Positions 4,723 to 21,280 of a stretch of 32,000 nt of DNA are shown here, in pieces. The DNA comes from Xylanibacter ruminicola 23 (GTDB taxonomy: Bacteria; Bacteroidota; Bacteroidia; Bacteroidales; Bacteroidaceae). Within the stretch, counting starts at the first letter, position 1. The number at the start of each line of letters is the position of its first letter. Under the pieces are notes generated by a model, which saw nothing but the letters and a program-made list of their open reading frames with translations, was not told the DNA's origin and searched no databases. The stretch spans positions 2,820,001 to 2,852,000 of the forward strand of contig NC_014033.1 in the NCBI RefSeq assembly GCF_000025925.1, in the 5' to 3' direction. The translations under genes and the position numbers were made by a program.

Positions 4723-4742
4723 AAATACGTCAGACACAATAG

Positions 4743-4825: not shown

Positions 4826-4932
4826 TTTTTATACATGTATCATATTAGAAGTGATACTTCCACTAAAAACATCACCACATCTATCATTCTGTATTTCAAT
4901 ACATTATACCCAAAAGTGATACTTTACGTATT

Positions 4933-5919: not shown

Positions 5920-7226
5920 TGTTGTTTCTCTTTTTCTAATAATATTTTAAGTTTATCGATAGCCAGCGTGATGCTGATATTCTTAGCGATGATACGACCA
6001 GAACGGTCAACCAGATAGTTATGGGGAATGGTTTGGATATCGAGAGCTTGATACTCGGGATACATTACTCTCTTCTTATCATCGTAGGCATAATAATTGT
6101 AAATCTTGTAGGGGCGATCGGTTTGGGTGGCATCTTTGTTGCGCAGATCTTTCTCCTTTACGGTGCTCCACCACTGTTTGCGATTCTCGTCTATACCTAT
6201 CAGACACACAGCCAAGTCATCGCTAAACTCCTGTGCAGCATAGCGGATATTGGGCATCTGAGCCATGCAAGGCTGGCACCACGATGCCCAGAAATCTACC
6301 AAAACGTATTTCCCACGAAATTCATTAACGTTAGGCTTCGCTCCGTTATAAAGGCGCAAGTTCATGTAGTCGCCTACCTTCAAAGGCCTTACTTTTACTT
6401 TATCTTCTTTCTGGAATCGCTCACTATACGTTCGTAATTGCATACCAGCCCATATCTCAAAACTCTGTGCCGACATATATGTCCCCATCGTGCTATCGTT
6501 TACAAAGGCTTTCATAGGTGAATAATCAGGGAATCGCACTAACAGCGAGTTCATCATATCGTCAACCTCCTTCTCGGTATAAGGATAAAGCGTTGGATTC
6601 CTGCGGAAAGAGTAGAATACATCACTTGCAGCTTCAATCACACTATATGGACTTTTTCCTGTACAGGCATAATCAAGGATATAGCGTTCAAGTTTATCTT
6701 TCTCCTGCTTCGCTATAGCGCGGATAGAATCACACTGGGCGTCGGAAAGGTTATAGAGCTGCGACATGTTATTCTGATTGAGATATACCTGACGAAGACT
6801 ATCGTACCTACATTGATAATGCACCATTTCGAGTGTTGATGGTGAGCCCTGCACCTTATCGATATAGCGCAAACGGAAACCGTCGTCTTCATCGCCGATA
6901 TGAATCGTTAAGCTGTCGCCACCCTTTACTACGATGGGCACACACTGCGGCCCGCGCCGTTGAAGCATCAGGTTTACGTTATACTCATAAGGCACATAGC
7001 CGTGCATGGTGCCCTCGCGATGCAACGAGTCGAAACTGATAGAGTCGTGCAGTTGCATCTCGCGTTCAATCATCGAGTACATATACATTTTTTGTGGTTC
7101 GCTGGCGATGGCCGAATCAATCTTCACCGTTACCGCAAACCTATTCTCAGGCACTCCCACCCACTTCTGGGCCGATGCGCCTGAAACACTTAATGCCATT
7201 AATGTTACTAATACAATCTGTTTCAT
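5916..7226 (-). CDS. TlpA/ResA-like thiol-disulfide oxidoreductase (thioredoxin fold) with an N-terminal extension domain
   Basis: Signal peptide MKQIVLVTLMALSVSGASAQ. C-terminal GKYVLVDFWASWCQPCMAQMP carries the WCxxC redox motif typical of the periplasmic TlpA/AhpC-TSA family. Confidence 0.8.
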   Translation of the reverse strand: MKQIVLVTLMALSVSGASAQKWVGVPENRFAVTVKIDSAIASEPQKMYMYSMIEREMQLHDSISFDSLHREGTMHGYVPYEYNVNLMLQRRGPQCVPIVVKGGDSLTIHIGDEDDGFRLRYIDKVQGSPSTLEMVHYQCRYDSLRQVYLNQNNMSQLYNLSDAQCDSIRAIAKQEKDKLERYILDYACTGKSPYSVIEAASDVFYSFRRNPTLYPYTEKEVDDMMNSLLVRFPDYSPMKAFVNDSTMGTYMSAQSFEIWAGMQLRTYSERFQKEDKVKVRPLKVGDYMNLRLYNGAKPNVNEFRGKYVLVDFWASWCQPCMAQMPNIRYAAQEFSDDLAVCLIGIDENRKQWWSTVKEKDLRNKDATQTDRPYKIYNYYAYDDKKRVMYPEYQALDIQTIPHNYLVDRSGRIIAKNISITLAIDKLKILLEKEKQQ

Positions 7227-7237
7227 ACTACGCTTTG

Positions 7238-7245
7238 CAAAAATA
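7238..7245 (-). promoter_or_regulatory. Possible internal -7 box (TAttTTTG on the minus strand) ahead of the TlpA-like gene
   Basis: Plus-strand caaaaata is the reverse complement of TATTTTTG. It lies 12 nt upstream of the ATG at 7226, in the 51-nt gap after the OMP gene. Confidence 0.3.
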
Positions 7246-7277
7246 ATGATTTCTATTGATACAACAAAATATTATTA

Positions 7278-9776
7278 CTACAAATTAAAGAATACTCTTG
7301 CCAGGAAATCGCGAGGGCGGAGTTGGTTGTTTACCACTATGTCGGTATAGCTGGTGGTATAGTGGCGATGGTAGTTGCGGGTGTTCAGGATGTTTGAACA
7401 TTGTACACCAGCCTCGAAGGTCTTGGTGCGATACGATATAGACAGGTCGCTGAGATAGTTGGTAGAAACAGAATTGTCATTGCTATGATATAGCTCATTC
7501 GCCCACTCTATCTGCCAATTACCTGGCAACAGGAACACCTTAAGTTGGTGGTTAAACGACTGCAGCGATCGCGTCATCGACTGACGGCTATAGCGATAGG
7601 CTGATTCTTCTTCGATAGACAACCAACGGGTGGGTTTCATCGAGAATCGCAGAGTGGCTCTACCATTGCGGGCATGCTGGCGACTCAGCACATTGCTAAT
7701 CAGCAAATCATAGCTGCTCCACGAGTAGCTGCCACTCATCGAAACACTAAGCTTTGCCCAAAAGATTGACTTGCCCAGATTACCCGACACGCTGTAGTAC
7801 TCATTGTTTTGGCGATAATCGGTAGCCTGACGGGTATAGACGTTGCCCACCAATCTACTCTGGTAGATAATGGCATCGCGAGTATTGTTGTAGCTCGAAC
7901 TGATTGCACCAAACATACCCGTCATCACATTGCGATAGTTCAATCCGATACCAGCCGAATGGCCTGTGGTGTGCTCAAACTCCCCAGAACCCTGTTGGCA
8001 ATAAAGATAGTTGGTATAATAGGGCATGCGGGTGATAGTGGCGATATCGCTGGGTGTCCATCGGTAACTGTAGTTGCCGCTGATATCGAGTTTCGAGGTG
8101 ATGCTGTAGCGGACAAAGAGATGAGGCACTATCAGGGGCGTTTGACTACGCTGCTCCTGATACTGGCGCAACAGCCAACTAACACGTCCGTTAAGGTTGA
8201 TGCTCCAAGACCCCTCACGATAGCTGAACGAAGGCTCAACATAGGGCTGATACTCGCTATAGCGATCGCGACTACTCAATGTAAGCCATTGGTTCTTGGT
8301 TTCGAAACCAGCCTTCCAGGTGGCTTTTACCTGCTTGATACTGTGCTGATAGTAGGCATATACGTTCCAATAAAGCATCTGCTGGGTAAGGTGCTGGGTA
8401 GTATCGCCAAGCAACAGCAGCTTGCCAGGCAGATAACTATAGCTGAACAGCGAGGCTATCGAATAGCTCTTGCCGTTCTTAAGTTTGTTTATCAGCTCCA
8501 GATTATCCACGATGTAACGTTTGCGAGGCTCCACCCGTTGAGGTGTTGGCATACCGTTTAACATCGATAGTCCTTCACTCTTATTGAAATCGATATAGCC
8601 CTTCAGCGTGTTCGACAGATAGTGATTATCGCGATTGGCCTTGTAGAGCAGTTCGGCCTGCCACTCGCTGCGTGTGCTGTGCGCCGATTGCTCCTCGGTA
8701 ATCAGGGCCGAGTCGGCATCCAGATAGATGGTCTGGCGACCCTGTTGCTGCCTACTGCGGTCGTATAGGCCTGTCAGCTGCAGCTTCAGGTCGTCATCTT
8801 TCTTATTCTTAAACAGCCAGTTGGTTGCGGCGATATAGGTATCGTTGAACTTGCTGCGACGCGCTTCAAGACTGGGTGCACCAAGACTGATATTGCTAAG
8901 TATGGCCGACTCTGTGGGGGCCGATTTCTCGAATCGCGACAGGTCTGTTACTTCATGCTCGATATCCTTACCTGTATTGTTAGCTTTCACCATTGATATA
9001 CTCTGCTTTTTGCGACCAAACACCATCTCCAGCCATCGTGCATCGCGCAACCAATCATCCCCATAACCAGTAGCCATATCCACCACGCCTTGCCACACGT
9101 TCTTGGCATCATCCTTCAGCACCAGATTGAGTGCAGCCTGCTCTGAGAATTGAACATTCTTTAGAGCTTTTACGGGTTGATGGTTCTCGTAAACCTGCAC
9201 GCTTTTTACCTTATCGGCCGAGAGGTTCTCGCTGGCCATTGCATACTTGCCACCCAGCAAGTCCATCCCTTCGATATAGAACTTGTTGATTGTCTTGCCC
9301 TGATATTTGATGGAACCATTAGGCTGTACTTCAAGTCCTGGCATTTTAGCGATGACGTCAGCTATCGAGCGATCTTGTTTCTGTTTGAATCCAGCAACAG
9401 AGTAAGTCAGCGTATCGCCTTCGGCACGTATCCGTTGTGGCGTTACTTTCACCTCTTTCAGGGCTACAGCCTGTTCCTGCATCTTGATAGTCTGTCCGTT
9501 CTTATAATCCTTGAGTGGTATTACTACCTTACCAAAACCCATCATCATTACCTCTATACTCTTGGCCTCTTTGCCTTGTGGAATGATGAGCGAGAAGCGT
9601 CCATCCTGCCCAGCACGAGCAAAGGCCACCACTGAACCGCCGTTGGTTTTGGCCACGACGGAGGCTGACACAAGTGGTTGCCCACCCTTGTCAGTCACCC
9701 GCCCGGCGTATGTCTGCGCTTTAATAAAAAGAGAGACGAACATTAATTTAAATAAAATTAGCAGCAGACGTTTCAT
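7278..9776 (-). CDS. Outer-membrane beta-barrel protein: CarboxypepD_reg-like domain, plug-like domain, TonB-dependent-receptor-like barrel
   Basis: Signal peptide, then YAGRVTDKGGQPLVSASVV..DGRFSL (carboxypeptidase regulatory-like fold). Plug-like region DTLTYSV..IADVIAKMPGLEV..IKYQGK..FYIEGMDL. The remainder is long, rich in Y/S/N and has alternating beta-strand character. This protein type is the usual neighbour of GLPGLI genes. Confidence 0.8.
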   Translation of the reverse strand: MKRLLLILFKLMFVSLFIKAQTYAGRVTDKGGQPLVSASVVAKTNGGSVVAFARAGQDGRFSLIIPQGKEAKSIEVMMMGFGKVVIPLKDYKNGQTIKMQEQAVALKEVKVTPQRIRAEGDTLTYSVAGFKQKQDRSIADVIAKMPGLEVQPNGSIKYQGKTINKFYIEGMDLLGGKYAMASENLSADKVKSVQVYENHQPVKALKNVQFSEQAALNLVLKDDAKNVWQGVVDMATGYGDDWLRDARWLEMVFGRKKQSISMVKANNTGKDIEHEVTDLSRFEKSAPTESAILSNISLGAPSLEARRSKFNDTYIAATNWLFKNKKDDDLKLQLTGLYDRSRQQQGRQTIYLDADSALITEEQSAHSTRSEWQAELLYKANRDNHYLSNTLKGYIDFNKSEGLSMLNGMPTPQRVEPRKRYIVDNLELINKLKNGKSYSIASLFSYSYLPGKLLLLGDTTQHLTQQMLYWNVYAYYQHSIKQVKATWKAGFETKNQWLTLSSRDRYSEYQPYVEPSFSYREGSWSINLNGRVSWLLRQYQEQRSQTPLIVPHLFVRYSITSKLDISGNYSYRWTPSDIATITRMPYYTNYLYCQQGSGEFEHTTGHSAGIGLNYRNVMTGMFGAISSSYNNTRDAIIYQSRLVGNVYTRQATDYRQNNEYYSVSGNLGKSIFWAKLSVSMSGSYSWSSYDLLISNVLSRQHARNGRATLRFSMKPTRWLSIEEESAYRYSRQSMTRSLQSFNHQLKVFLLPGNWQIEWANELYHSNDNSVSTNYLSDLSISYRTKTFEAGVQCSNILNTRNYHRHYTTSYTDIVVNNQLRPRDFLARVFFNL

Positions 9777-10636
9777 TTTTTCTTCTTCGTAATTTTATTC
9801 TTTGAATACTTCTTCTTTAGGTTGACGCCAGGAAACTTCTCGTATAAGATACGGGTTTGAGGGGAAATCTTGACTTCATTTCCCTGTGCATCCCACATTC
9901 TTGTAACCCTCGCCGCCATACCTGTTATTTGTGACAAATGAGCAGAACGATCCCAATACTCCATCATCATGATTTCTGCTACACGTTCTGGCATATAGGT
10001 ATCAATCACACCCGATTTTGGCATTTTCATCTTGATTTCATGTCCATCACCCTTCTCTATGCCAATGCAGTTAAAACGAAACTTATCTTCCGAATCATAA
10101 GCATATAGCACCAAACCTGGCAGACCGCAGAATTTCCAAGGACCGTCGCTATAGGGCAAATCGAGTGTGTACCATACCGTCCAGATTCTACCTCTGAATA
10201 TGGTGGTAGCCTTATGGCAGGGATAGCCACATACAATAGAGTCGCCATCCAGCAGTTGCCAGTCAAATAATCCTTCTATCTTTTCACGACAAGACACCCA
10301 ACCAGGCATGTGGACAAACCGCAGATATCCTTCGTTAGGCGTATTCTTAAACACCTCATCACGCAATGTTGCATAGCCAGCATAGGGATCTTTGATTCGC
10401 TTAGCCATGATGTCGCTTTTGTTTTTAGTCAGAAATTCACCTATTATACTAATATATTGCGATGAGTGTTCGCCAATATCCAATCGCATCAGGTCTTTTT
10501 CCCTTTTAGCCACCTCTTCTACTTTCTGGTATTGCACCTCATAGGTAACCGACAGTTTGGTAACGTCTGACTGAGCATTAACCCCAGTCACACGCACAAT
10601 CAACGCTAATAGAATTAAAATAATCATTCGCATCAT
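9773..10636 (-). CDS. GLPGLI family protein (TIGR01200-like), paralog 1
   Basis: Signal peptide MMRMIILILLALIVRVTGVNAQ. Family motif ..GPWKFCGLPGLVLYA.. Lys-rich C-terminal tail KKKYSKNKITKKKK. The stop overlaps the OMP start (ATGA). Confidence 0.85.
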   Translation of the reverse strand: MMRMIILILLALIVRVTGVNAQSDVTKLSVTYEVQYQKVEEVAKREKDLMRLDIGEHSSQYISIIGEFLTKNKSDIMAKRIKDPYAGYATLRDEVFKNTPNEGYLRFVHMPGWVSCREKIEGLFDWQLLDGDSIVCGYPCHKATTIFRGRIWTVWYTLDLPYSDGPWKFCGLPGLVLYAYDSEDKFRFNCIGIEKGDGHEIKMKMPKSGVIDTYMPERVAEIMMMEYWDRSAHLSQITGMAARVTRMWDAQGNEVKISPQTRILYEKFPGVNLKKKYSKNKITKKKK

Positions 10637-10659
10637 TATCTGATTTTAGTTTTCTGCGG

Positions 10660-10667
10660 CAAAGGTA
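10660..10667 (-). promoter_or_regulatory. -7 promoter box (TAccTTTG on the minus strand) of GLPGLI paralog 1
   Basis: Plus-strand caaaggta lies 24 nt upstream of the ATG at 10636. The same surrounding sequence is duplicated upstream of paralog 2. Confidence 0.5.
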
Positions 10668-10696
10668 TATAAAAACCCCGATAGCCTGATAAAACC

Positions 10697-10717
10697 ATAG
10701 TTTGCAAATAGTTTGCA
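10697..10717 (-). promoter_or_regulatory. Tandem direct repeat ATAGTTTGCA x2 with 11-bp phasing, a candidate activator site upstream of the paralog 1 promoter
   Basis: ATAGTTTGCA at 10697..10706 and 10708..10717. The element is conserved at 12016..12034 upstream of paralog 2. Confidence 0.4.
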
Positions 10718-10882
10718 TTTGATTGTTTGCCCCGTTTTTGTTCCCACGTGAGGGAATTTTTGCGCCCTCACGAGGGAAATAATTTTTCTATTAATAGTAG
10801 CATATAGCAGGAGCGCCGTCATTGTACGGCAGTATCTGGCAGATAGTATGGCAGTATCTGATAGAAAGTCGTAATGCAGGGT

Positions 10883-11054
10883 AGAAACAGGGAAACAGGG
10901 AAAACGGGAATCGGGGTGGTTTTAGAACGCAACGAGGAAAGCTAATAATTGGATAAATGATACGATTATCATTTTTAATTATATATACCTATCTATAAGC
11001 TTACGCTCGCTGCCAAACCATACCTACTCCACGTTTCCCTGTTTCCCTGTTTCT
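10883..11054. repeat. Perfect 21-bp inverted repeat (AGAAACAGGGAAACAGGGAAA / TTTCCCTGTTTCCCTGTTTCT) flanking a 130-bp AT-rich segment
   Basis: Left arm 10883..10903, right arm 11034..11054; exact reverse complements, checked base by base. Each arm is itself a GAAACAGG tandem repeat. Confidence 0.85.
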
Positions 11055-11120
11055 CAGTTTCGTTAGCTAATAAATACTACTATCAGCATAAGTTCACAGC
11101 TAGCGAGGATGGTTTCATAA

Positions 11121-11948
11121 TTATTTCTTTTTACGCGAGCGGGGATTAGTTTTATTTTTCTTCTTGTGGTTTTGAGGGAATATTTCGTAGGGAATGGCTG
11201 TTTTGGGTGTCCACTTATAATGCCGGCCTTTTGCGTCGATTCTGTCTGTGATACGTCCTCCAGACATTGCATAAACATAAGCATCATTGTCGGCTGCTTC
11301 GAATAAGAGCAATTCTTCTGCTTTCTCTGGGGTTACTAATCGTATTCTTTTTGATGCAGGAAAAGAAAAAGTGTGTCCATCGCCTTTCTCGATGCTGGTG
11401 CAGTCGAAAATAAACTGTCGTGTACTATCTTGGGCATGAAGTATCAGCCCAGGCAAACCGCATAATTTCCAAGGGCCATCGTTATATGCCAAATCAAGTG
11501 TATACCATGCAGTCCAGGTTCGACCGCGAAATGTGGTCTGAGCTTTGTGGCAAGGATATCCACAAACAATAGAATTGCCCTCGACCAACTGCCAATCAAA
11601 CAGATGGTTGATAGAATCCTGAGTGGTTATCCAATACGGCCAATGCATGGCTGTGACAAGCCCTTTGTTAGGCATATTCTTGTAAACCTCTTCATTCTTA
11701 ATCTTTGTTCCTGGATAGGGAGCTTTGCCTACGGGATTAAAATTATACCACTCTGATACCTTACTATAATAACGCGAAGTATTTGTGCCAATATCAAGCT
11801 GAGCGATGTCTCTTGACAGCGAATCATCTTCGGCATAGTTCAGATAATGCACCTCGTACGTCACCGACAGTTTGGTGATGTCTGACTGAGCATCAACACC
11901 AGCCACACGTGCAATCAACATCAATAATAATAGAAATATCATTTTCAT
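11121..11948 (-). CDS. GLPGLI family protein (TIGR01200-like), paralog 2
   Basis: MKMIFLLLLMLIARVAGVDAQSDITKLSVTYEV.. is collinear with paralog 1 (FDWQL..SIVCGYPCHKA..FRGR.WT.WYTLDL.Y.DGPWK.CGLPGL). Lys/Arg-rich tail NHKKKNKTNPRSRKKK. Confidence 0.85.
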   Translation of the reverse strand: MKMIFLLLLMLIARVAGVDAQSDITKLSVTYEVHYLNYAEDDSLSRDIAQLDIGTNTSRYYSKVSEWYNFNPVGKAPYPGTKIKNEEVYKNMPNKGLVTAMHWPYWITTQDSINHLFDWQLVEGNSIVCGYPCHKAQTTFRGRTWTAWYTLDLAYNDGPWKLCGLPGLILHAQDSTRQFIFDCTSIEKGDGHTFSFPASKRIRLVTPEKAEELLLFEAADNDAYVYAMSGGRITDRIDAKGRHYKWTPKTAIPYEIFPQNHKKKNKTNPRSRKKK

Positions 11949-11976
11949 CCTGAATTTGATTTTGGTTTATCGGCGG

Positions 11977-11984
11977 CAAAGGTA
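11977..11984 (-). promoter_or_regulatory. -7 promoter box (TAccTTTG on the minus strand) of GLPGLI paralog 2
   Basis: Plus-strand caaaggta sits within a block (cggcaaaggtatataaaaac.ccgatagcctgat) that is duplicated from the paralog 1 upstream region. Confidence 0.5.
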
Positions 11985-12015
11985 TATAAAAACTCCGATA
12001 GCCTGATGCTACCGG

Positions 12016-12034
12016 AGTTTGCAAATAGTTTGCA
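12016..12034 (-). promoter_or_regulatory. Tandem direct repeat AGTTTGCA x2 with 11-bp phasing, second copy of the candidate activator site
   Basis: AGTTTGCA at 12016..12023 and 12027..12034, in the same position relative to the -7 box as at paralog 1. Confidence 0.4.
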
Positions 12035-12042
12035 TTTGGAGT

Positions 12043-13635
12043 TTAGAGGGTGCGAATTACCTCGTCCCAGTCTTTTGCACTGGCTTTTTTGCCAAATGTC
12101 TTTTCGTACAGACGACTGCGAACGGTTGATATGGCAGCCTTGCTGCGGAGGGTGAGTGTGGCAATTCTAACAGGTTCGAAACCTGCTTTTAGCAACAGAC
12201 TGACATGCAGTTCGTGAGTAGATGGATGACACAGATGCATCAAACGTCCTGTGAATCCATCATATACCTCATCGATGGCCTCCGATAGACTTATCCAATC
12301 ATCATCTGTTGGATGCTCACTATCAGGCAGCGTAGCCAGTCGTTGCCATATCTCTGTACTCTCTATCGTTTGTTCGGCTCGTTTTATCTCTTCTACGTCG
12401 GCCTTGGCATAGTTCTTTTTCAACTGTTGCAGGTGCTGGATACGCATCTCCATCAGTTCCTGGCGACGGCGATGACGCTGGATATAGGTAGCAAAGAGCA
12501 CTACGATAATCACCACCACAGCTATACCTATTATAATAATCGACAGTTTAAAGTTGTTGTCGGCTTTCAGCTGCACGTTTTCTTCGGCCTGTTTCTGATT
12601 GTTGTAGAAAGCGTCGGCCTGGGCGATGGCCTCGTTGTTGGCGATAAAGTTCAGTTCATCGTTCAAATCCTTATAACGTGTGAAATGGTCTTCGGCCTCG
12701 GCTGCTTTACCTTGTTGGATAGCGATATGAGCCAGAATCTCATGAACATCGCGCCTGCTAACAGAGTTGCCCTCGTTCATCACTCTCTGAGCAAAGAACA
12801 GAGCAGAGTCAATACTTCCTGTGTGGTAATATACACTTGCTAACAAGGCATCAACCTTATGACGCCCGCCTTGCATTTGCTTATCCTTCAGGGGGAGAGC
12901 CAATCCCTTGGCAGCATTATACTGCCCGCTTTCGCAGTAGTAGCTGGCCATATCGAACCTTAGTTCGTCTTGTTCATCAAACAGTCCGGCTTTTGTGGCT
13001 AAGACAAATGCGTCGTTAAGGTACGATAACATACCTCTTGGCACGCGTTCCATCTTAAACGACTGACTGATATAGCGTATTGCATGAATCATGCTGAGTG
13101 TGTCGCCCTGATTTTCAGCATAGTGCAGAATGTAATTGGCATAGCGATTGGCAACATCGGGCATATTCTGGCGCAGCAGCAGTTTCACCATCCTTTCGTA
13201 TAAATCGATATGCTGAGGCGTGATTTCGGTTGGCAACAGCTCTTCGGCCTTATGATAATAGGCGATTGCCTTAGGACCATCGCTGCAGTTAGCTGCTATC
13301 GAACCAGCTATGATATAACTACGTATCAGTTTTTTCTTATCGCCTACCTCCTCGTAATAATCCACTATTTCGTCAGCTGCCTTGAAGTTGCGTTCAGGCG
13401 ACAGCTCGTTGTTCATCTCAAGTGCCAACAGCATATAATAATGCTTCACATAATCGGCACAATTATCCGTCTGTCCCTTCAGTTGGGCCAGTTCTTTTCG
13501 AGCTAAGTCGCGATTATGTCGATGATCAATCTTGTCGAGCTCGTGGTAATAATACTTGTTGCCGCTATAATGGCAACCCGATAAGAGCGTGATGGCAAAC
13601 ATTACCATCAATCCTTGAAAACATATCTTTTTCAC
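12043..13635 (-). CDS. Membrane-anchored regulator: lipoprotein signal, periplasmic TPR domain, single TM, coiled coil, C-terminal LuxR/GerE-like HTH; no receiver domain
   Basis: GTG start. Lipobox LLSGC after MKKICFQGLMVMFAIT. TPR-like repeats. TM segment LSIIIIGIAVVVIIVVLFATYI. C-terminus HELHVSLLLKAGFEPVRIATLTLRSKAAISTVRSRLYEK resembles the HTH tail of Bacteroidota TPR regulators. Confidence 0.65.
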   Translation of the reverse strand: MKKICFQGLMVMFAITLLSGCHYSGNKYYYHELDKIDHRHNRDLARKELAQLKGQTDNCADYVKHYYMLLALEMNNELSPERNFKAADEIVDYYEEVGDKKKLIRSYIIAGSIAANCSDGPKAIAYYHKAEELLPTEITPQHIDLYERMVKLLLRQNMPDVANRYANYILHYAENQGDTLSMIHAIRYISQSFKMERVPRGMLSYLNDAFVLATKAGLFDEQDELRFDMASYYCESGQYNAAKGLALPLKDKQMQGGRHKVDALLASVYYHTGSIDSALFFAQRVMNEGNSVSRRDVHEILAHIAIQQGKAAEAEDHFTRYKDLNDELNFIANNEAIAQADAFYNNQKQAEENVQLKADNNFKLSIIIIGIAVVVIIVVLFATYIQRHRRRQELMEMRIQHLQQLKKNYAKADVEEIKRAEQTIESTEIWQRLATLPDSEHPTDDDWISLSEAIDEVYDGFTGRLMHLCHPSTHELHVSLLLKAGFEPVRIATLTLRSKAAISTVRSRLYEKTFGKKASAKDWDEVIRTL

Positions 13636-13641
13636 TATTCT

Positions 13642-15546
13642 TTAATTTGTATTTGGGATGGTGAGGATGAAGCGACAGCCAGAGTGGTAGGTGGTGTCGA
13701 GAACTACATCGCCGCCTAGGTTCTGGGCGTGGCGCTTGGCTAGCGGCAGGCCCAAGCCGAGACCTTCGGAGAGGTCATCGACCTTGGTAAAGAACTTAAA
13801 GAGGTGTTCTACTTCGGCCTCAGGGATGCCGTTACCCTGATCCTGAACCGCAAAGCTAACCATAGCCTCATCGGCCGATACCTGCAACTCAACATGCTTT
13901 CCGTCGGAATACTTGGCGGCATTGTACATCAGCTCCAACAACGCATGCATAAAATAGGTGCGGTTGGTAAGCACACTGAAATCGTCGGCCAGTTGCGACT
14001 GGATGCTGATACTAACACCAGGATAGCGCTGGCGCACCACATCTGCAGCCTGATGGGCCTCTTGTACACACAGCAGCGTGTCGGTTTTATCGCAATTCAT
14101 CTCCTCGTTCAATCCAGAATCAGAGCTGTCAAACAGCATCTGCACCATGCGGTTAAGCTGGGTGGCATTATGGTTCATGGTATCGGTAACATTCTTCAGA
14201 TCGTCGTCCGACAGGTTACCGCTACCAGCATCGCTCAGCACCTGAGCAAAGCCCATAATGATATTCAGCGGCGTGCGTATCTGGTGGGTAACGTTCTGTA
14301 TAAAAGTGGTCTTCTGGCGGTCGGCCTCCTGAGCCATACGGGTGGCCTGCAGCAGTTCCTCGTTGCGCTGGCGGGTCTGGTCGCTCACAAAGCGCACACT
14401 CTTCATGTGGTAGTTAAGCGATTCCAGCATCTGTGCAAAGCTGTTCTGCAAACGGCCTATCACATCGATACGTGTGGTGCGAGGGATAGTAACATCCATA
14501 TTACCAGCTGTAATGCTCTGGGTTTTATCCAGCAGCTCGTGCAGCGGACGGATGGTATGAGCCATAGCGCGATGACTCAACAGAATAATCACCAGCAAGC
14601 CGAGTACCAGCAGCGATACCACGATATAAATCAGTCGATGGTAACCTTCCATCACATCGCTATCAGGACACACAATAGCCAGGCTCCACTTGGTGCCAGG
14701 CACAGGCTGGTAGCACACGATGCAATCGGCACCATCCATGTTTACCATCATATTACCCCTTTTGCCGCTGGTCATCTCGTGGCCCAGCACTATCTGGTCG
14801 GCCTGTTTGCGGGTATCGGCGCCCGTAAAGATGGTTTGCTTAAACAGCAGCGTAGAATCGGGATGCACATAGTAGCGGCCATTCTCGCCTATCAGCATGA
14901 AATAAGAATGGGGATAGGGTTTCATAGCCGACATTTCGTGCGAGAGTCGCAACAGCGAGAGGTCGGTAGAAATCACACCCACAAACGCGCTATCGGCATT
15001 ATAAAGCGGTTTGCAATACGATGCCAACATGCCATCGAGGGTGAGCTCCAACGAGTCAACCTCATCGTAATATGCCACCCAGCAGGCATCGCGCAGCTGG
15101 TGGGGCGTTTTATACCATACCTTATTAAAATAGTCGTAGGGCTCTTCGATAACCGTGGTTACCGAGTCGGCTTTACGTACCGAGTAAGCCGAGAAATAAC
15201 GTCCGTACTGGGGGAACATATCAGGCTGGGCACTGATAGAGCAGCCGTCGATATGGGGATTGAGACTCACGATACGATTGGCGAAATACAACAGCGAGTC
15301 GGGTGTAAACACCTGCTCTACCTGCCACAGGTTGGCATTGGTAGCCGTCTCGATAGTCAGGAAATGCCGGTTAAGCTGCTGCATGGTGGCATTCAGTACG
15401 CTACTGGCATGCCCGATGGCCTCGTTACGAATCATTTTTCGCGACTGGGTGAACAGCACGCCCAGCGAGATGACAAAGATGGGGGCAGCCAGAATCAGGA
15501 GTGCCACGCTGAGTTTGGTTGAGAACGACTTACGGATATTAATCAT
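13642..15546 (-). CDS. Sensor histidine kinase (TM, double-Cache-like periplasmic domain, TM, HAMP, HisKA, HATPase_c)
   Basis: H-box FIQNVTHQIRTPLN (His codon 14284..14286). N-box LELMYNAAKYS. G1 box VQDQGNGIP. G2 box GLGLGLPLAKR. Two hydrophobic segments flank a periplasmic region of about 270 aa with Cache-like W/Y/HPD pattern. Confidence 0.9.
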   Translation of the reverse strand: MINIRKSFSTKLSVALLILAAPIFVISLGVLFTQSRKMIRNEAIGHASSVLNATMQQLNRHFLTIETATNANLWQVEQVFTPDSLLYFANRIVSLNPHIDGCSISAQPDMFPQYGRYFSAYSVRKADSVTTVIEEPYDYFNKVWYKTPHQLRDACWVAYYDEVDSLELTLDGMLASYCKPLYNADSAFVGVISTDLSLLRLSHEMSAMKPYPHSYFMLIGENGRYYVHPDSTLLFKQTIFTGADTRKQADQIVLGHEMTSGKRGNMMVNMDGADCIVCYQPVPGTKWSLAIVCPDSDVMEGYHRLIYIVVSLLVLGLLVIILLSHRAMAHTIRPLHELLDKTQSITAGNMDVTIPRTTRIDVIGRLQNSFAQMLESLNYHMKSVRFVSDQTRQRNEELLQATRMAQEADRQKTTFIQNVTHQIRTPLNIIMGFAQVLSDAGSGNLSDDDLKNVTDTMNHNATQLNRMVQMLFDSSDSGLNEEMNCDKTDTLLCVQEAHQAADVVRQRYPGVSISIQSQLADDFSVLTNRTYFMHALLELMYNAAKYSDGKHVELQVSADEAMVSFAVQDQGNGIPEAEVEHLFKFFTKVDDLSEGLGLGLPLAKRHAQNLGGDVVLDTTYHSGCRFILTIPNTN

Positions 15547-16891
15547 GATCGGCCTCCTTTCTCATTTCATCGTCCGACATCGATATCAGATTCTTCAGCA
15601 GCTCGGTGATGGCCTTACCCTTCTTCTGTACATCGCTCACCAACTGGGCTGTATCACGATCCGACTGACTGCAAAGCTGCTGCACATCCTGTTCGATGGC
15701 AACGGCAGGTTCCATCATCTGGTTGGTCATGTTATGTAGGAACGAGGTTTTCATACGGTCGGCCTTCTTAGCCTGATCGTAAGCCTTTCGCAATCCCTCG
15801 CAGCGCTGATACAGGGTATTCTTCAGACTCTCCAGCTCGTCTATCTGGGTGGCCAGCGAGCGTTGCATCAGCTGGAAGTTGTCCTGCAAACGTCCCACCT
15901 CATCAATATGCTTGCTATCAGGGATGGGTTCGCTAAAGTTACCTGCGGCAATATGCTGCGCCTGGGATGTAAGCATGAGCAGAGGCTTCAAGCGGCTCTT
16001 GATAACCGCATGACTCAACAGGAACGTCAACAGCAGGCCTATAATACTGATAACCAGCACATAGTACTGCAAGTTGTTGTAATCGCCAAAGATGTCGCGC
16101 TCTGGATAGATAATACCAGCGCTCCACCCCAGATGGCCGATGGCGCGGCCGCGCACACTGCTACGACTGAAGGGCTTGAAGTACACATAGAAATCGGTGC
16201 CCCACAAACGGAATGTGCGATAATCGGTCTGGCCGGCAATCATGGCCTGCACAGCCTCGCCAAGTTCAGCGTTGGCATTAGCCTTAGATATCTCAATGGC
16301 CGACTGCTGCATCAGCTGCTCAGCATCGGGATGCACAATAAAGTTGCCCACACTATCGAGCAGCACACAGAACGAGTTTTCGGAAGGTTTGGTCTGAGCC
16401 ACAATGCGCGAGAGCAAACCTATCGAAACATCGGTACTGACGTAACCCGCAAGCTGCCCTGCAGTATTATACAACGGCACACTGAAACTGATAAGCGGCT
16501 CCTTACCCTCCTGGACAGGTTTTACGGTCCACTTCGACTCTTTTATTGTAGTGTCGCCAAGGGCGATGGTGCAATCGGCCACGTAAGGGTTACTGTCTAT
16601 GAGTTTGCGGCGATAGAGTTCCAATGCCTCAGGATTGTTGATACGAGATGGCAGACTGTAATACACATTACCCGTAGCCTGCTCAACACTCAGCAGAATG
16701 TTATCGATATTCTGCACCGTGCCATCCAGCGTCTGGGTAACGCGGGCCATGGTTTCTTCCTTTACCTTTTTTCGCGAGTAAAGCAGCATGACTACCAACG
16801 AGGCTATGAGCAGAACGGCCATAGCCGAGACAGCCATCAGACTGATTTTGACTGATAGGCGGCCTTTGATAAAGTTAGTTAGTTTAGTCAT
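15539..16891 (-). CDS. Degenerate sensor paralog (TM, Cache-like, TM, HAMP, HisKA-like helix with His replaced by Asn); no ATPase domain
   Basis: Same N-terminal architecture as the adjacent kinase. The H-box equivalent is FLHNMTNQMMEPA (Asn codon 15722..15724). The protein ends about 60 aa later. Its stop overlaps the kinase ATG by 8 nt (GATCATGATTAA). Confidence 0.75.
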   Translation of the reverse strand: MTKLTNFIKGRLSVKISLMAVSAMAVLLIASLVVMLLYSRKKVKEETMARVTQTLDGTVQNIDNILLSVEQATGNVYYSLPSRINNPEALELYRRKLIDSNPYVADCTIALGDTTIKESKWTVKPVQEGKEPLISFSVPLYNTAGQLAGYVSTDVSIGLLSRIVAQTKPSENSFCVLLDSVGNFIVHPDAEQLMQQSAIEISKANANAELGEAVQAMIAGQTDYRTFRLWGTDFYVYFKPFSRSSVRGRAIGHLGWSAGIIYPERDIFGDYNNLQYYVLVISIIGLLLTFLLSHAVIKSRLKPLLMLTSQAQHIAAGNFSEPIPDSKHIDEVGRLQDNFQLMQRSLATQIDELESLKNTLYQRCEGLRKAYDQAKKADRMKTSFLHNMTNQMMEPAVAIEQDVQQLCSQSDRDTAQLVSDVQKKGKAITELLKNLISMSDDEMRKEADHD

Positions 16892-16909
16892 ACTTACCTA
16901 CGTTTTTGT

Positions 16910-17980
16910 TTACTTGTACTCCTTAGCTTTTCGTTTGCCTTGCAGCACCGCCAGGGCGTTCAGGGCCAGGGCTTCCATCTCGTCTTCGCCAGGGAAACAG
17001 CGGATGGGTGCCAGAAAGCCTACACGCTCGCGGATACGACTCACGATATATTCACTCCTGGCAAGGCCACCCGTTAGCAGGATGGCATCTATCTGACCAC
17101 AGAGCACAGCACTCTCGGAGGCAATGTTCTTGGCCACATGATATATCATCGCATCCAGGATTAGCTTGGCGTGCTGGTCGCCATAATCCTCGATGCGGCG
17201 CAACACCTCGCGCACATCGTTGGTGCCCAGATGGGCATTCAGTCCGGCCTTGCCGGCAATGCGCTTCAGCAGTTGCTTCTCGTTATATTTTCCACTAAAA
17301 CAGAGTCGGATGAGATCCGATGCTGGCAGCGAACCGGCACGTTCGGGCGAGAACGGCCCCTCGCCATCCAGGGCGTTGTTGGCATCAACGGCACGGCCTT
17401 TTTCGTGGGCTGCGATTGAGATGCCGCCACCCATGTGGCAGATAATCAGATTCAAGTCCTCGTACTCCTTACCAATCTCCGATGCATACCTGCGAGCTAT
17501 GGCACGCTGGTTAAGGGCATGCCAGATGCAGATACGGTTCATCAGCGGCGAACCTGAGATACGGGCATAGTCGTTCAACTCATCTACCACACCAGGATCG
17601 GCTATAAACGAGCGGCAATGAGGGATGGTAGCAGCTATCTCGTGGGCTATCAGGCAGCCTAAGTTACAGGCATGGTTATGCAGGGCAATACCGCTGTGGG
17701 TATCCTGTATCATCAAGTCGTTAATCTCGTAAACACCACCTTCGAGTGGTTTCACCAGTCCACCTCGGCCTATCACAGCATCAAACTCCACGGGTATATC
17801 GGCCTGGCGCAACTCGTCGAGCACCAGCTGCTTACGAAAGTCCTGCTGTTCAATCACATCGTCGAAATGGGCCAGCTCGTCGGCACTATGAGCAATGGTG
17901 CGGACCAGCAGAGGCGATTCGTCGTCGAAAACGGCAATCTTCGTAGATGTTGAACCTGGGTTTATAACTAATATCTTCAT
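16910..17980 (-). CDS. buk: Butyrate kinase
   Basis: MKILVINPGSTSTKIAVFDD.. GRGG..P..GGVY, the ASKHA-fold butyrate kinase pattern. The preferred ATG at 17978..17980 overlaps the ptb stop (TAATG). The 25-codon upstream extension in the ORF track is rejected. Confidence 0.9.
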   Translation of the reverse strand: MKILVINPGSTSTKIAVFDDESPLLVRTIAHSADELAHFDDVIEQQDFRKQLVLDELRQADIPVEFDAVIGRGGLVKPLEGGVYEINDLMIQDTHSGIALHNHACNLGCLIAHEIAATIPHCRSFIADPGVVDELNDYARISGSPLMNRICIWHALNQRAIARRYASEIGKEYEDLNLIICHMGGGISIAAHEKGRAVDANNALDGEGPFSPERAGSLPASDLIRLCFSGKYNEKQLLKRIAGKAGLNAHLGTNDVREVLRRIEDYGDQHAKLILDAMIYHVAKNIASESAVLCGQIDAILLTGGLARSEYIVSRIRERVGFLAPIRCFPGEDEMEALALNALAVLQGKRKAKEYK

Positions 17981-18816
17981 TAAATTGCAGCTAAAGCCAA
18001 AGAGTAGTACTTTGAATCGGGGCTGTCGGCACGCGATGGCAGCACGCAGCAGCACTGGGTGCCCTGCAGCACACCTGCCGTCTTGGCATAACCAAACAGG
18101 GTGATGGTTTTGTAGAACACATTACCAGCTACGATATCGGGGAATATCAAGGCATCGGCCTGTCCGTCGATCACGCTGTGGATACCCTTTTCGCGCAGAC
18201 TAACGGAGTCGAGCGATGTCTTGAGGTCGAGTGGACCATCGATGATGCAACGTCCGAACTTACCCGTCTGAGCCTCGGCTATAATCTCTAAGTAATCCAC
18301 GGTATATGGGAATGTTTTGGCGCTCACCTTCTCGGCACAGTGAATGAGCGAGATACGCGGCTCCTCGATACCCAAGGCGTGACACACATAGTTTACATAG
18401 TGTATCTGCTGGCGGCGCTGGGCCTCGGTGGGTACAGGTATCACGGCTGCGTCGGTAAAAAACAGCAGCTTCTCGTACTTAGGTATCTCGGCCATCGCCA
18501 CATGGGTTAACACATGGCCTGGGCGCAGTATACCGTTCTCCTTATCCAGGATAGCCTTCAGCAGCACATCGGTATTCACAAGGCCCTTCATCAGGATATC
18601 GGCCTCGCCATTCTTACACAGGGCCACAGCACGGCGCGCACACTCCTCCTTGTCGTCGCCATCCACGTAGATAGGCTCGATAAATCCCATCTCCTTACCC
18701 TTCTCAACAGCGTATCGGGTGCTGGCATCGTTGGCACAAACCACAGCCACGCGCTTCTTGTCGCCACGCTGCTGCAGAAAGACTATCATATCATTTAAAG
18801 TTCGTATCGACTGCAT
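17980..18816 (-). CDS. ptb: Phosphate butyryltransferase (phosphate acyltransferase, PTA_PTB family)
   Basis: 278 aa. Contains KRVAVVCANDA..ADILMKGLVNTD..LTHVAM..LLFFTDAAV..LIHCAEK..DGPLDLK..FPDIVAGNVFYK, typical of Ptb. Coupled to buk. Confidence 0.88.
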   Translation of the reverse strand: MQSIRTLNDMIVFLQQRGDKKRVAVVCANDASTRYAVEKGKEMGFIEPIYVDGDDKEECARRAVALCKNGEADILMKGLVNTDVLLKAILDKENGILRPGHVLTHVAMAEIPKYEKLLFFTDAAVIPVPTEAQRRQQIHYVNYVCHALGIEEPRISLIHCAEKVSAKTFPYTVDYLEIIAEAQTGKFGRCIIDGPLDLKTSLDSVSLREKGIHSVIDGQADALIFPDIVAGNVFYKTITLFGYAKTAGVLQGTQCCCVLPSRADSPDSKYYSLALAAI

Positions 18817-18846
18817 AGGTTTATTATTTTTATCGGTTTAATGGCG

Positions 18847-18854
18847 CAAATATA
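18847..18854 (-). promoter_or_regulatory. -7 promoter box (TAtaTTTG on the minus strand) of the ptb-buk operon
   Basis: Plus-strand caaatata lies 31 nt upstream of the ptb ATG, back to back with the GH95 promoter. Confidence 0.5.
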
Positions 18855-18866
18855 CAAATATTTTTG

Positions 18867-18874
18867 TATCTTTG
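18867..18874 (+). promoter_or_regulatory. -7 promoter box (TAtcTTTG) of the GH95 gene
   Basis: TATCTTTG overlaps the first codons of the ORF-track start at 18872. This argues for the downstream ATG at 18905. Confidence 0.5.
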
Positions 18875-18904
18875 CAAGCAGAAACCGATAAAAACAAAAA
18901 AAAG

Positions 18905-21280
18905 ATGAAGAATTACCTGCTTTTACTAACTATGACGTGCCTAACTGCTACGGCACAGCAGCAGGCTCCAATGGTATTGGAGTACAACAAACCAGCTACG
19001 TTTTTCGAAGAATCGCTACCTATTGGTAACGGTAAGATGGGTGCCCTGATTTATGGCGGCACCGACGACAACGTGATTTATCTGAACGACATTACGCTGT
19101 GGACAGGTAAACCTGTGGATCGCAACCTGGATGCCGATGCCCACAAGTGGATACCTGAGATTCGCAAGGCGCTGTTTAACGAGAACTATGCGCTGGCCGA
19201 CTCGCTGCAGCTGCACGTGCAGGGTCCTAACTCGCAGCACTACCAGCCACTGGGCACACTGCATATCAAGGACTTAGGTCTGGGCGAGATTAAGTACTAC
19301 CGCCGCACGCTGGATATCGACTCGGCGATTGTTCGCGACAGTTACGAACGCGACGGCCGCCACATCACCCGCGAGTATTTTGCCTCAAATCCTGATAAGC
19401 TGATAGCTATCCGTCTGCGTGGCGACATCAACTGCCAGATAGCTCTTACAGCCCAGGTGCCCCACCAGGTAAAGAGCGGCTTAGGACAGCTTACTATGAC
19501 GGGCCACGCCACAGGCGATGCACAGGAGAGTACACACTTCTGCACCATCCTAAGCGTAAAGACCGATGGCGAGATGGCTGCCAGCGACTCATCGCTCACC
19601 ATCACCAAAGCCAAGGAGGCTATCATCTACATTGTAAACGAAACCAGCTTTAACGGGTTCGATAAGCACCCTGTACGCGAGGGCGCCAACTACCTGGAGG
19701 CTGTAACCAACGACCTGTGGCACACACAGAACATGACGTTCGACGAGTTCTATGCCCGCCACCTGGCCGATTATAAGACTATCTACGACCGCGTAAAAAT
19801 CTGTCTGAACAAGGGCGGTCGCAATCCTAAGGACCTGCCAGGTGCCAAGGATCGCCGTATGACCGACGAGATGCTGCTGGATTATACCAATGGCAACGAC
19901 CAGACACCTTATCTGGAGGAGCTTTACTTCCAGTTCGGCCGCTATCTGCTTATCTCAGCCTCGCGCACCAAGAACGTGCCTGCCAACCTGCAGGGTTTGT
20001 GGGCCCCCCAGCTGTGGTCGCCCTGGCGTGGCAACTATACGGTAAACATCAATTTGGAGGAGAACTACTGGCCTGCCTTTGTGGCTAACATGGCCGAGAT
20101 GGCTGAGCCACTTGACGGTTTTATTGCCGGCTTGGCAGCCAACGGCAAGTTCACCGCCAAGAACTACTATAACATCCACGAGGGCTGGTGCTCGAGTCAT
20201 AACAGCGACATCTGGGCGATGACCAACCCTGTAGGCGAGAAGAACGAGAGTCCTGAGTGGAGTAACTGGAACCTAGGTGGTGCCTGGCTGGTAAACACCC
20301 TGTGGGAGCGCTACCAGTTTACACAGGACAAGACTTACCTGAAGAACATTGCCTATCCGCTGATGAAGGGTGCTGCCCAGTTCTGCTTGCGTTGGCTCAT
20401 CGACAACCCCAAGCAGCCAGGCGAGCTGATTACTGCCCCCAGCACATCGCCCGAAAACGAGTATAAGACCGATAAGGGCTATCACGGCACTACCTGCTAC
20501 GGTGGTACAGCAGATCTGGCCATTATCCGCGAACTGTTTATCAACACCATTGCTGCAGGCAAGGTGCTTGGACTGAAGAATAAGGAGATGGAGCAGGCCC
20601 TGGCTAAGCTGCACCCCTACACTATCGGCCACATGGGCGACCTGAACGAGTGGTACTACGACTGGGACGACTGGGATTTCCAGCATCGCCATCAGAGCCA
20701 CCTCATCGGTCTCTACCCAGGCAATCATCTCACTGATGCCACCCTGCAGAAGGCAGCCGAGCGTTCGCTGGAGATTAAGGGCGACAAGACCACCGGCTGG
20801 AGCACAGGCTGGCGTATTAACCTGTGGGCCCGATTGCACAACGCCAAGCAGGCTTATCACATCTATCAGAAGCTGCTTACACCTATTGCCCCACGCGGTG
20901 TGCGTAAGGAGGATTGGAAGGCCTGGCACAAGGGCGGCGGTACCTACCCCAACCTGTTTGATGCGCATCCACCTTTCCAGATTGACGGTAACTTTGGCGG
21001 CACAGCCGGTGTGTGCGAGATGCTGATGCAAAGTTCAATAGTTAATGGTCAATGTTCAATCGAGTTACTGCCAGCATGCCCAGAGCAGTGGCAGGATGGC
21101 GCCATTAGCGGATTGTGCGCTCGTGGTGGCTACGAGGTAAGCTTCGAGTGGAAAAATGGCAAGGTGCGCGGTTGCAGCATCAAAGCCAAGAAAGCAGGAA
21201 CACTTACGCTTATATATAACGGTCAGCAGAAGAAGGTAAAACTGAAGGCTGGCGAGACACAAAACATTAAAACATGGTAA
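18905..21280 (+). CDS. Glycoside hydrolase family 95 (alpha-L-fucosidase-like), secreted
   Basis: Signal peptide MKNYLLLLTMTCLTATAQ. N-terminal LEYNKPA..EESLPIGNGKMGALIYGG..E.I.LND.TLWTG. Catalytic-region motifs ANLQGLW, YTVNINLEENYWP, STSPEN, FQIDGNFGGTAG. Confidence 0.88.
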   Translation: MKNYLLLLTMTCLTATAQQQAPMVLEYNKPATFFEESLPIGNGKMGALIYGGTDDNVIYLNDITLWTGKPVDRNLDADAHKWIPEIRKALFNENYALADSLQLHVQGPNSQHYQPLGTLHIKDLGLGEIKYYRRTLDIDSAIVRDSYERDGRHITREYFASNPDKLIAIRLRGDINCQIALTAQVPHQVKSGLGQLTMTGHATGDAQESTHFCTILSVKTDGEMAASDSSLTITKAKEAIIYIVNETSFNGFDKHPVREGANYLEAVTNDLWHTQNMTFDEFYARHLADYKTIYDRVKICLNKGGRNPKDLPGAKDRRMTDEMLLDYTNGNDQTPYLEELYFQFGRYLLISASRTKNVPANLQGLWAPQLWSPWRGNYTVNINLEENYWPAFVANMAEMAEPLDGFIAGLAANGKFTAKNYYNIHEGWCSSHNSDIWAMTNPVGEKNESPEWSNWNLGGAWLVNTLWERYQFTQDKTYLKNIAYPLMKGAAQFCLRWLIDNPKQPGELITAPSTSPENEYKTDKGYHGTTCYGGTADLAIIRELFINTIAAGKVLGLKNKEMEQALAKLHPYTIGHMGDLNEWYYDWDDWDFQHRHQSHLIGLYPGNHLTDATLQKAAERSLEIKGDKTTGWSTGWRINLWARLHNAKQAYHIYQKLLTPIAPRGVRKEDWKAWHKGGGTYPNLFDAHPPFQIDGNFGGTAGVCEMLMQSSIVNGQCSIELLPACPEQWQDGAISGLCARGGYEVSFEWKNGKVRGCSIKAKKAGTLTLIYNGQQKKVKLKAGETQNIKTW

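Follow-up and report, generated by a model that had tools for sequence, protein, structure and literature searches.

What does a protein built like a sensor histidine kinase do when it has neither the histidine that is phosphorylated nor an ATPase domain, and to which output is the complete kinase encoded beside it connected? The question is raised by three adjacent minus-strand genes in a 32,000 bp stretch of the Xylanibacter ruminicola 23 genome (contig NC_014033.1, positions 2,820,001 to 2,852,000; this whole stretch is called the window below). In the order of transcription these genes encode a pseudo-histidine-kinase of 450 amino acids (aa), a 634-aa sensor histidine kinase, and a 530-aa membrane protein with tetratricopeptide repeats (TPR) and a likely helix-turn-helix (HTH) domain, called the TPR/HTH protein here. 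An initial annotation had read the three as a pair of sensors wired to a membrane-bound regulator. Its coordinates and junctions are as claimed, with an 8-nucleotide (nt) overlap between the first two genes and a 6-nt gap from the kinase stop codon to the GTG start of the third, but the wiring is not borne out, as the third gene is absent from most loci that have the pair and belongs to a cassette of its own. In the reading that we favor, and consider probable, the pseudokinase and the kinase are one two-gene sensor that signals to an unlinked response regulator, and the TPR/HTH gene encodes an independent SusR-like regulator.

The pseudokinase begins with a transmembrane (TM) helix, which is followed by a shortened dCache_1 domain (residues 34–241, 47 bits against a Pfam cut-off of 45), a second TM helix, a HAMP domain (residues 301–346) and a hairpin that resembles the DHp domain (for dimerization and histidine phosphotransfer); the protein then stops. 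It can be aligned end to end with the kinase (25% identity, E = 1e-43), and the paralogy spans the N-terminal cytoplasmic stub, both TM helices and the DHp hairpin. In the hairpin, residues 373–450 align with kinase residues 405–486, the motif ADRMKTxFLHNMT corresponds to ADRQKTxFIQNVT of the kinase, and the Asn of NMTNQMMEP lies opposite kinase His421 in NVTHQIRTP. The C-terminus is about 60 residues past the H-box and therefore leaves no room for a catalytic domain. Pfam searches of the protein gave no match to HisKA (E ≤ 0.01) or HATPase_c; precomputed HisKA matches are present in some members of the His-less family. Of the features that define a class I kinase, the phospho-His and HATPase_c are thus absent and homology to the DHp hairpin is present, and the combination of sensor-kinase homology with lost catalytic requirements that marks RocA-like accessory proteins is found in the 450-aa protein. 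The initial annotation had described the same parts, including the Asn in place of His and the missing ATPase, and both Pfam and the alignment agree with it. The most conserved segment of the pseudokinase is DHp helix 1 (68–96% identity), which would fit a retained protein interface. A shifted phospho-acceptor, namely the His four residues upstream (FLHNMTN), was considered and rejected, since it is Q or R in some orthologues.

The 634-aa neighbor is a typical class I kinase by its domains and motifs. Pfam finds dCache_1, HAMP, HisKA (residues 411–475, 49.8 bits) and HATPase_c (residues 530–633, 67 bits), and the N, G1, F and G2 boxes are found in the translation as YNAAKY, DQGNGI, FKFF and GLGLGL, respectively. 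The H-box reads T-H-Q-[IV]-R-T-P-L-N, with Gln instead of Glu or Asp after the phospho-His (His421-Gln422, 14281..14286). This Gln is present in all 15 orthologues from the genome loci described below (L001–L016) and in most of the 600–660-aa representatives. An acidic residue after the phospho-His is generally important for autokinase chemistry in HisKA kinases, and because Gln takes that place the kinases of this family may be weak, phosphatase-biased or dependent on a partner. We note that in one relative (L007, the metagenome-assembled genome SIG140; 9346..11249) the kinase is present as two open reading frames (ORFs) of 351 and 318 aa, through either a frameshift or an assembly error, and the pseudokinase is intact.

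The two genes stay together far beyond this strain. A survey that took one genome per species gave 16 loci in rumen Prevotella (L001–L016), in every one of which the kinase gene comes directly after the pseudokinase gene. The pseudokinases are 39–97% and the kinases 47–99% identical to their counterparts in the window, the closest genome being that of strain D31d (L001; 97% for the pseudokinase). Ten further metagenomic contexts, reached from diverged short proteins and, separately, from distant kinases, each contain a His-less short gene directly upstream of a full kinase gene. The junctions are mostly 4- or 8-nt overlaps and otherwise short gaps (−8, −4, +3, +4, +16 and +34 nt were seen). 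Asn occupies the His position in 17 of 17 short orthologues, within the strongly conserved motif ADRMKTxFLHNMTNQMxxP; the replacement that the initial annotation had noticed is therefore no accident of one strain. Its view that the short gene is not a fragment of its neighbor also holds, as each protein has a full input module of its own and the pair is conserved in 16 of 16 genomes.

An exhaustive search of representatives at 50% identity gave 862 relatives (E ≤ 1e-10), which fall into two length classes. Proteins of 445–545 aa end 45–70 residues after the H-box, never contain a catalytic domain, and have N, D, T, S, E, G, K or R at the His position; proteins of 600–660 aa keep the His and have about 200 further residues that form the catalytic domain. 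A profile search added at least 851 further 90%-identity clusters, and among the best 120 of these HAMP and dCache are found in all and HATPase_c in none, 86 have N, 33 have D and one has H at the H-box position, and the motif FLHNMT[ND]QM is conserved. For the pseudokinase family as a whole, the C-terminus was always 42–69 residues past the H-box. In a neighbor-joining tree the His-less short proteins are essentially one clade, apart from the kinases, and this clade branches in the same pattern as the partner kinases. When codons were compared with those of four or five close relatives, the ratio of nonsynonymous to synonymous substitution rates (dN/dS) was 0.07–0.17 for the pseudokinase, in its periplasmic and cytoplasmic halves alike, and 0.02–0.09 for the kinase. 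These comparisons indicate that the pseudokinase is a conserved, selected and functional His-less and ATPase-less paralogue of its neighbor. Its apparent origin is an old tandem duplication of a dCache-HAMP-HisKA-HATPase kinase, in which the upstream copy kept the topology, the Cache and HAMP domains and the DHp hairpin, and lost all of the ATP-binding domain as well as the phospho-His, which Asn or Asp has replaced. By the same comparisons, pseudokinase and intact kinase are co-encoded and, as the junctions suggest, translationally coupled.

The short proteins carry a variety of source-database names, among them "methyl-accepting chemotaxis protein", "histidine kinase", "ABC transporter substrate-binding protein", "sigma-B regulation protein RsbU" and "HAMP domain-containing protein", none of which fits the architecture (examples are P0021, P0077, P0360, P0361, P0388 and P0453). 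The pseudokinase of the X. ruminicola clade is itself shorter than others by about 55–65 residues in the membrane-distal Cache module (at ~16480..16560, residues ~111–137). The orthologues of L008–L010 and L012–L014 retain these residues, and L011 and L015 have an apparently independent deletion at the same position. In the clade of the window the pseudokinase may not sense a ligand on its own but may have a structural or regulatory role as a partner.

No receiver (REC) domain accompanies the pair. Pfam Response_reg has no match in the large ORFs of the window, and phmmer searches with five receiver seeds found none in any window ORF of at least 70 aa; the seeds were entered by hand, and the screen is a weak negative alone, but it is backed by Pfam scans of selected neighbors and by precomputed Pfam annotations of metagenomic contexts. 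The claim of the initial annotation that the 32-kb window contains no REC domain is thus confirmed. It had also named a conserved cognate response regulator next to orthologous loci as evidence that would count against it, and none adjoins the pair in about 27 loci. In the 6–10 kb fetched on each side of the pair in these loci (Pfam scans of selected neighbors, precomputed Pfam annotations for the metagenomic contigs, and the seed screen) there is no REC gene except in L029, where a REC/AraC protein is encoded 6.5 kb from the pair, beyond seven genes on the opposite strand. The REC gene adjoining the kinase gene that characterizes a canonical two-component operon is not found at the pair loci, and the missing linked receiver is a property of the whole pair family. 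Orphan kinases with unlinked partners are common, and since the HisKA/HATPase core is normal, the kinase most likely serves an unlinked receiver.

The genes around the pair vary among loci. It adjoins carbohydrate genes in L009, L013, L014, L022, L023, L029, L032 and L036; the glycoside hydrolase (GH) and other genes concerned include GH43, SusC/SusD, GH5, GH31, GH97, arabinofuranosidase, GH20 with SusC/D, and GH9. Because pairs often adjoin such carbohydrate-utilization genes, a role in nutrient or glycan sensing is hinted at. In one lineage (L026–L028, 9000..13443) the pseudokinase gene overlaps at its start, by 4 nt, with that of an NMT1-like periplasmic binding protein, and binding protein, pseudokinase and kinase form a three-gene unit.

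As to how the two proteins work together, a kinase/pseudokinase hetero-complex is, judging from the sequences, the most economical reading. Indirect support for an interaction comes from the invariable adjacency, the gene overlap, the parallel branching of the two proteins in the tree and the conservation of DHp helix 1. The pseudokinase would assemble with the kinase in the membrane, most likely as a heterodimer through the TM, HAMP and DHp regions or, alternatively, as a hetero-oligomer of two homodimers, and it would set the kinase/phosphatase balance of its partner, which would then act on a response regulator encoded elsewhere. A stricter version, which we put forward tentatively and regard as possible rather than probable, is an obligate asymmetric heterodimer, in which the pseudokinase supplies a second Cache input and half of the HAMP/DHp bundle and the kinase supplies the sole His and the sole catalytic domain. 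Such a heterodimer could autophosphorylate only in cis, because the single His and the single ATPase share one chain. Should autophosphorylation occur in trans, the pseudokinase would instead be a ligand-controlled dominant inhibitor, tunable by its own periplasmic domain.

The DHp hairpin of the pseudokinase might also dock the response regulator itself, as a decoy, scaffold or sequestering protein that buffers or localizes the output with no phosphotransfer and no effect on the kinase. In favor of this, the best-conserved part of the pseudokinase is the helix that docks receivers in kinases (DHp helix 1), and the proline after the H-box is kept. However, the residues that follow the H-box position differ systematically (NQMMEPAVAI versus HQIRTPLNII in the kinase), the Thr/Asn of the phosphatase motif is lost, and the topology, the HAMP domain and the obligatory co-encoding are a better fit to a role directed at the kinase, so that regulator docking seems rather improbable to us.

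Somewhat less credible still is the idea that the short protein works independently, as a Cache-HAMP transducer with some other partner, its place beside the kinase gene being a relic of the tandem duplication. It has a complete input module of its own, and the methyl-accepting chemotaxis, HAMP-domain and RsbU-like labels in the databases would agree with such a function. Pfam searches, however, gave no match to MCPsignal, PP2C or another output domain in the pseudokinase, and relic adjacency is unlikely to persist in all of about 27 loci, at identities down to about 25–30% and with overlapping stop and start codons. Identity as a chemoreceptor was rejected on the absence of the MCPsignal domain; the NCBIfam chemoreceptor matches to the pseudokinase cover the HAMP region only and are far below cut-off.

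The output proposed in the initial annotation is the product of the third gene. The TPR/HTH protein has an invariant lipobox Cys21, a TPR array, one TM helix, a long coiled coil and a very conserved C-terminal domain. Profile matches to TPR structures, an AlphaFold2 (AF2) model (predicted local distance difference test score, pLDDT, 86) and Foldseek matches to LGN, Rap and NprR support the TPR assignment; the resemblance to the peptide-binding Rap and NprR sensors is at the generic level of the TPR fold only. For the C-terminal domain, Pfam GerE does not match the window protein and matches one of 13 family members (E = 0.005). Comparison by hhalign with an alignment of LuxR-type domains, from a set entered by hand, gave 91% probability and E = 1e-6, and the best PDB profile match is the DNA-binding domain of EvgA (E = 0.05). 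The AF2 model of this domain has a pLDDT of 96, and its top Foldseek matches are nearly all NarL/FixJ/LuxR DNA-binding domains, individually weak (E = 0.6–3); the full-length model (Foldseek) and the full-length alignment (PDB profiles) give TPR matches only. The lipoprotein-type TPR sensor with one TM helix of the initial annotation therefore stands, and its LuxR-like (LuxR/GerE-type) HTH at the C-terminus is likely from these models, with support below curated thresholds. No REC domain was matched in the protein by Pfam or NCBIfam, and its models are all-helical, without a receiver fold.

The best reading of this protein is an independent SusR-like one-component regulator, with periplasmic TPR, a TM helix and a putative cytoplasmic LuxR-like HTH. 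The SusR-like regulators of Bacteroides likewise have a periplasmic sensor, one TM helix and a C-terminal cytoplasmic HTH, and one-component regulators of this type, which are typical of Bacteroidetes, control outer-membrane loci beside their own genes (PMC3878776). The differences are that the sensor here is a lipoprotein-type TPR array, that the NCBIfam SusR_regulator model has no match in the protein at E ≤ 0.01, and that the accompanying genes encode GLPGLI, CarboxypepD_reg and thioredoxin proteins and not SusC/D and glycosidases. The other NCBIfam matches of the protein are a weak one to BT3442_fam (38 bits, cut-off 940) and one of its TPR part to FimS.

The history of the TPR/HTH gene is tied to those accompanying genes. 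They form a variable cassette of two GLPGLI proteins, an 832-aa CarboxypepD_reg protein, a TlpA-like thioredoxin and a TPR protein; with the TPR/HTH gene itself the variable block covers 4933..13635. Among the genome loci the TPR/HTH gene is intact only in L002, L007 and L016, which are part of the X. ruminicola clade and contain different subsets of the cassette; it is absent from L004, L005 and L008–L015, and the contig of L003 ends just past the kinase gene and is uninformative on this point. In L006 (P6B1) a 92-codon remnant of the gene is left (scar region 11258..11551). In D31d, with a kinase pair 97–99.5% identical to that of the window, the scars comprise 45 nt of the 5' end of the TPR/HTH gene and a 75-nt piece of the thioredoxin gene (11251..11626), as well as the 3' end of the last cassette gene. 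Divergence at synonymous sites (dS) from L016 is 0.30 for the TPR/HTH gene and 0.9–1.8 for buk (see below), the pseudokinase and the kinase; recent exchange of the cassette is suggested by its dS values, which are about a third or less of those of the flanking genes.

Homologues of the TPR/HTH protein elsewhere point the same way. One that is 55% identical is encoded where there is no pair at all (L017), and no homologue is present in nine of the ten metagenomic contexts of the pair, L022 being the exception. In the contexts of P0325 (L020–L022) the same gene set as in the window is headed by a 32%-identical homologue, after which come a 95-aa ORF, a thioredoxin gene, a 57-aa Peptidase_C39 fragment, and GLPGLI and CarboxypepD_reg genes. 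The TPR/HTH gene thus travels with the cassette of GLPGLI, outer-membrane and thioredoxin genes that adjoins it, and most likely the regulator controls that cassette. A peptide-related function of the cassette is hinted at by the small ORF and the C39 fragment. In two of the L020–L022 contigs an IS110 transposase gene is inserted. In L022 a probable orthologous pair (42–50% identity) lies 3.4 kb upstream of the TPR/HTH homologue, with three genes on the opposite strand between them, so that the two are neighbors in this sub-lineage.

That the pair signals to the membrane-tethered TPR/HTH protein, as an output that replaces the response regulator, is very unlikely in the light of this record. 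The 6-nt gap makes co-transcription likely in this strain, no receiver domain is found in the window or near the pair loci, all three genes lie together in L002, L007 and L016, and in L022 the pair is 3.4 kb from a TPR/HTH homologue. On the other side, the gene is absent from the ten genome loci and nine metagenomic contexts given above and was deleted from D31d and L006 with the pair left intact, its divergence history is unlike that of the pair, it occurs without the pair and with its own cassette, and the cytoplasmic part of its product is all-helical and has no receiver fold. Co-occurrence of the three genes in other genomes was a test of refutation that the initial annotation had itself set: the pair co-occurs in 16 of 16 genomes, and the intact trio only in the three named. 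In this strain the TPR/HTH gene merely shares a transcript-level neighborhood with the kinase pair.

Finally, a decaying pseudogene or the annotation artifact of a split kinase, to which the missing His and catalytic domain and an Asn codon (AAC) one base from His (CAC) might point, can be dismissed, as intact 445–545-aa ORFs occur in at least 850 protein clusters, dN/dS is low, FLHNMT[ND]QM is conserved and each protein has its own TM/Cache/TM/HAMP module. A programmed frameshift that fuses the two ORFs is topologically possible, but the junction geometry varies among loci, which argues against it.

Several points weigh against our reading of the pair as one two-gene sensor with an unlinked response regulator and of the TPR/HTH protein as separate from it. 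Conserved adjacency alone fits a heterodimer and other couplings alike. The catalytic competence of the kinase is assumed, given Gln422. In the clade of the window the pseudokinase may lack ligand binding of its own, because the membrane-distal Cache residues are missing. Since REC genes are consistently absent within 6–10 kb of the pair in about 27 loci, the output could be a non-canonical one, and the L022 neighborhood and the 6-nt gap in the window leave a small probability of some lineage-specific link between pair and regulator.

Table 1. Features of the pseudokinase/kinase locus and its surroundings in the window (positions are those of the window).
Feature	Position	Strand	Basis or remark
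Pseudo-histidine-kinase gene, 450 aa	15539..16891	minus	ORF; Pfam dCache_1 and HAMP only
Pseudokinase shortened dCache_1	~16169..16792	minus	Between TM1 and TM2
Pseudokinase HAMP	~15854..15991	minus	Pfam
Pseudokinase DHp-like hairpin	~15542..15799	minus	Alignment to kinase
Asn codon (AAC) at phospho-His position	15722..15724	minus	Motif NMTNQMMEP
Stop/start overlap, pseudokinase/kinase	15539..15546	minus	ATGATTAA (15546..15539), 8 nt
Sensor histidine kinase gene, 634 aa	13642..15546	minus	Pfam; NCBIfam kinase matches
Kinase dCache_1	~14671..15435	minus	Pfam
Kinase HAMP	~14413..14559	minus	Pfam
Kinase HisKA	~14122..14316	minus	His421 codon 14284..14286
Kinase HATPase_c	~13648..13959	minus	Pfam
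TPR/HTH gene, 530 aa, GTG start	12043..13635	minus	ORF; module separate from kinase pair
TPR/HTH TM helix	~12472..12540	minus	One helix
TPR/HTH likely cytoplasmic LuxR-like HTH	~12091..12228	minus	Profile and model comparison
Variable cassette travelling with TPR/HTH gene	4933..11948	minus	Pfam, NCBIfam, presence/absence, deletion scars
ptb-buk (phosphate butyryltransferase and butyrate kinase)	16910..18816	minus	Context only, close clade only

The ptb-buk genes lie directly upstream of the pair, the end of buk being 18 nt from the pseudokinase start, and in the clade of the window a divergent GH95 gene and an AraC-type gene lie beyond them. The listed GTG start of buk (18055) makes this gene overlap ptb by 76 nt (17980..18055); its real start is probably about 25 codons downstream, because homologues elsewhere align from residue 24–26 onward. 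The other large ORFs of the window encode, by Pfam, FtsZ, RecO, GyrB, a GH95 enzyme, two AraC-type proteins, DUF3109, UDG and iPGM proteins and a beta-helix protein. A tRNA gene between recO and gyrB (2106..2177) is the sole Rfam match within the window. An inverted repeat at 4743..4827, seen as a reverse-strand blastn self-match between the convergent gyrB and last cassette genes, is probably a bidirectional terminator. A scan of 4600..19000 for sigma-70 promoters and terminators gave counts equal to those of shuffled controls, with a consensus that is unsuited to Bacteroidetes.

Control of a kinase by a kinase-derived pseudokinase is established for RocA/CovS, FasB/FasC, RetS/GacS, DivL/CckA and RcsD (PMC7028121, PMC12675982, PMC8498467, PMC4211667, PMC3762810). 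RocA of Streptococcus pyogenes is, like the protein described here, a kinase-homologous membrane protein with a DHp region, and it needs neither a phospho-His nor a catalytic domain to contact and modulate the genuine kinase CovS (PMC7028121). RocA nevertheless keeps the His and a degenerate catalytic domain, both of which are gone family-wide here, and its six TM helices are accompanied by neither a Cache nor a HAMP domain. It is also encoded away from CovS and is not its close paralogue, whereas the partner here is the paralogous neighbor and the genes overlap. FasB and FasC of the same species are encoded by adjacent kinase-like genes, one product being a proposed pseudokinase, and there is evidence that they hetero- rather than homodimerize through the DHp domain, which would make a three-component system (PMC12675982). 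There, however, the response regulator FasA is encoded in the same operon, and none is linked here; both Fas proteins also retain kinase-like domains and their DHp histidines, the phosphorylated one being on the proposed pseudokinase.

In Pseudomonas aeruginosa the sensor RetS controls GacS by a contact at the level of the DHp domain that disrupts or replaces the homodimer interface (PMC8498467). RetS differs in that it is a full hybrid kinase, that its gene is distant from gacS and its sensor domain a different one, and that it acts as an antagonist in a multikinase network rather than as an obligatorily co-encoded truncated paralogue. DivL, which acts with CckA in Caulobacter (PMC4211667), and RcsD, which acts with RcsC in enterobacteria (PMC3762810), are likewise derived from kinases and lack a functional phospho-His (DivL has a Tyr), and they regulate a genuine kinase or serve it as a relay. 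Both keep a repurposed catalytic fold; a tandem paralogue with overlapping genes and a second copy of the periplasmic sensor is found in neither case.

Searches of open-access full texts found no description of the pseudokinase/kinase family, only of these analogues in other phyla. The concept of a pseudokinase that controls a kinase is thus already known. What sets this case apart is the complete, family-wide loss of both the His and the ATPase domain, the paralogous neighbor with the same Cache-HAMP input as partner, the translationally coupled genes and the lack of a linked regulator. Sensor histidine kinases are generally treated as homodimers, and to our knowledge the documented hetero-complexes of kinase and pseudokinase are few and each specific to a lineage; here a co-translated pair with a His-less and ATPase-less partner has become fixed in Bacteroidales of rumen and gut, in at least 850 protein clusters, and the current database names of the short proteins hide this family. 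If the asymmetric heterodimer is real, two ligand inputs would be integrated in one four-helix bundle with cis autophosphorylation, an arrangement that would be fixed across hundreds of Prevotellaceae/Bacteroidales sensors with unlinked regulators, often beside glycan-utilization genes. The pair would then be a natural half-of-sites kinase, in which cis versus trans autophosphorylation and the integration of two sensors are directly testable. The pairs could be an unrecognized class of nutrient sensors in Prevotella, which would stand alongside the hybrid two-component systems, SusR-like regulators and extracytoplasmic function (ECF) sigma factors, and so large and conserved a family would be a clean natural system for the study of heteromeric histidine-kinase signaling.

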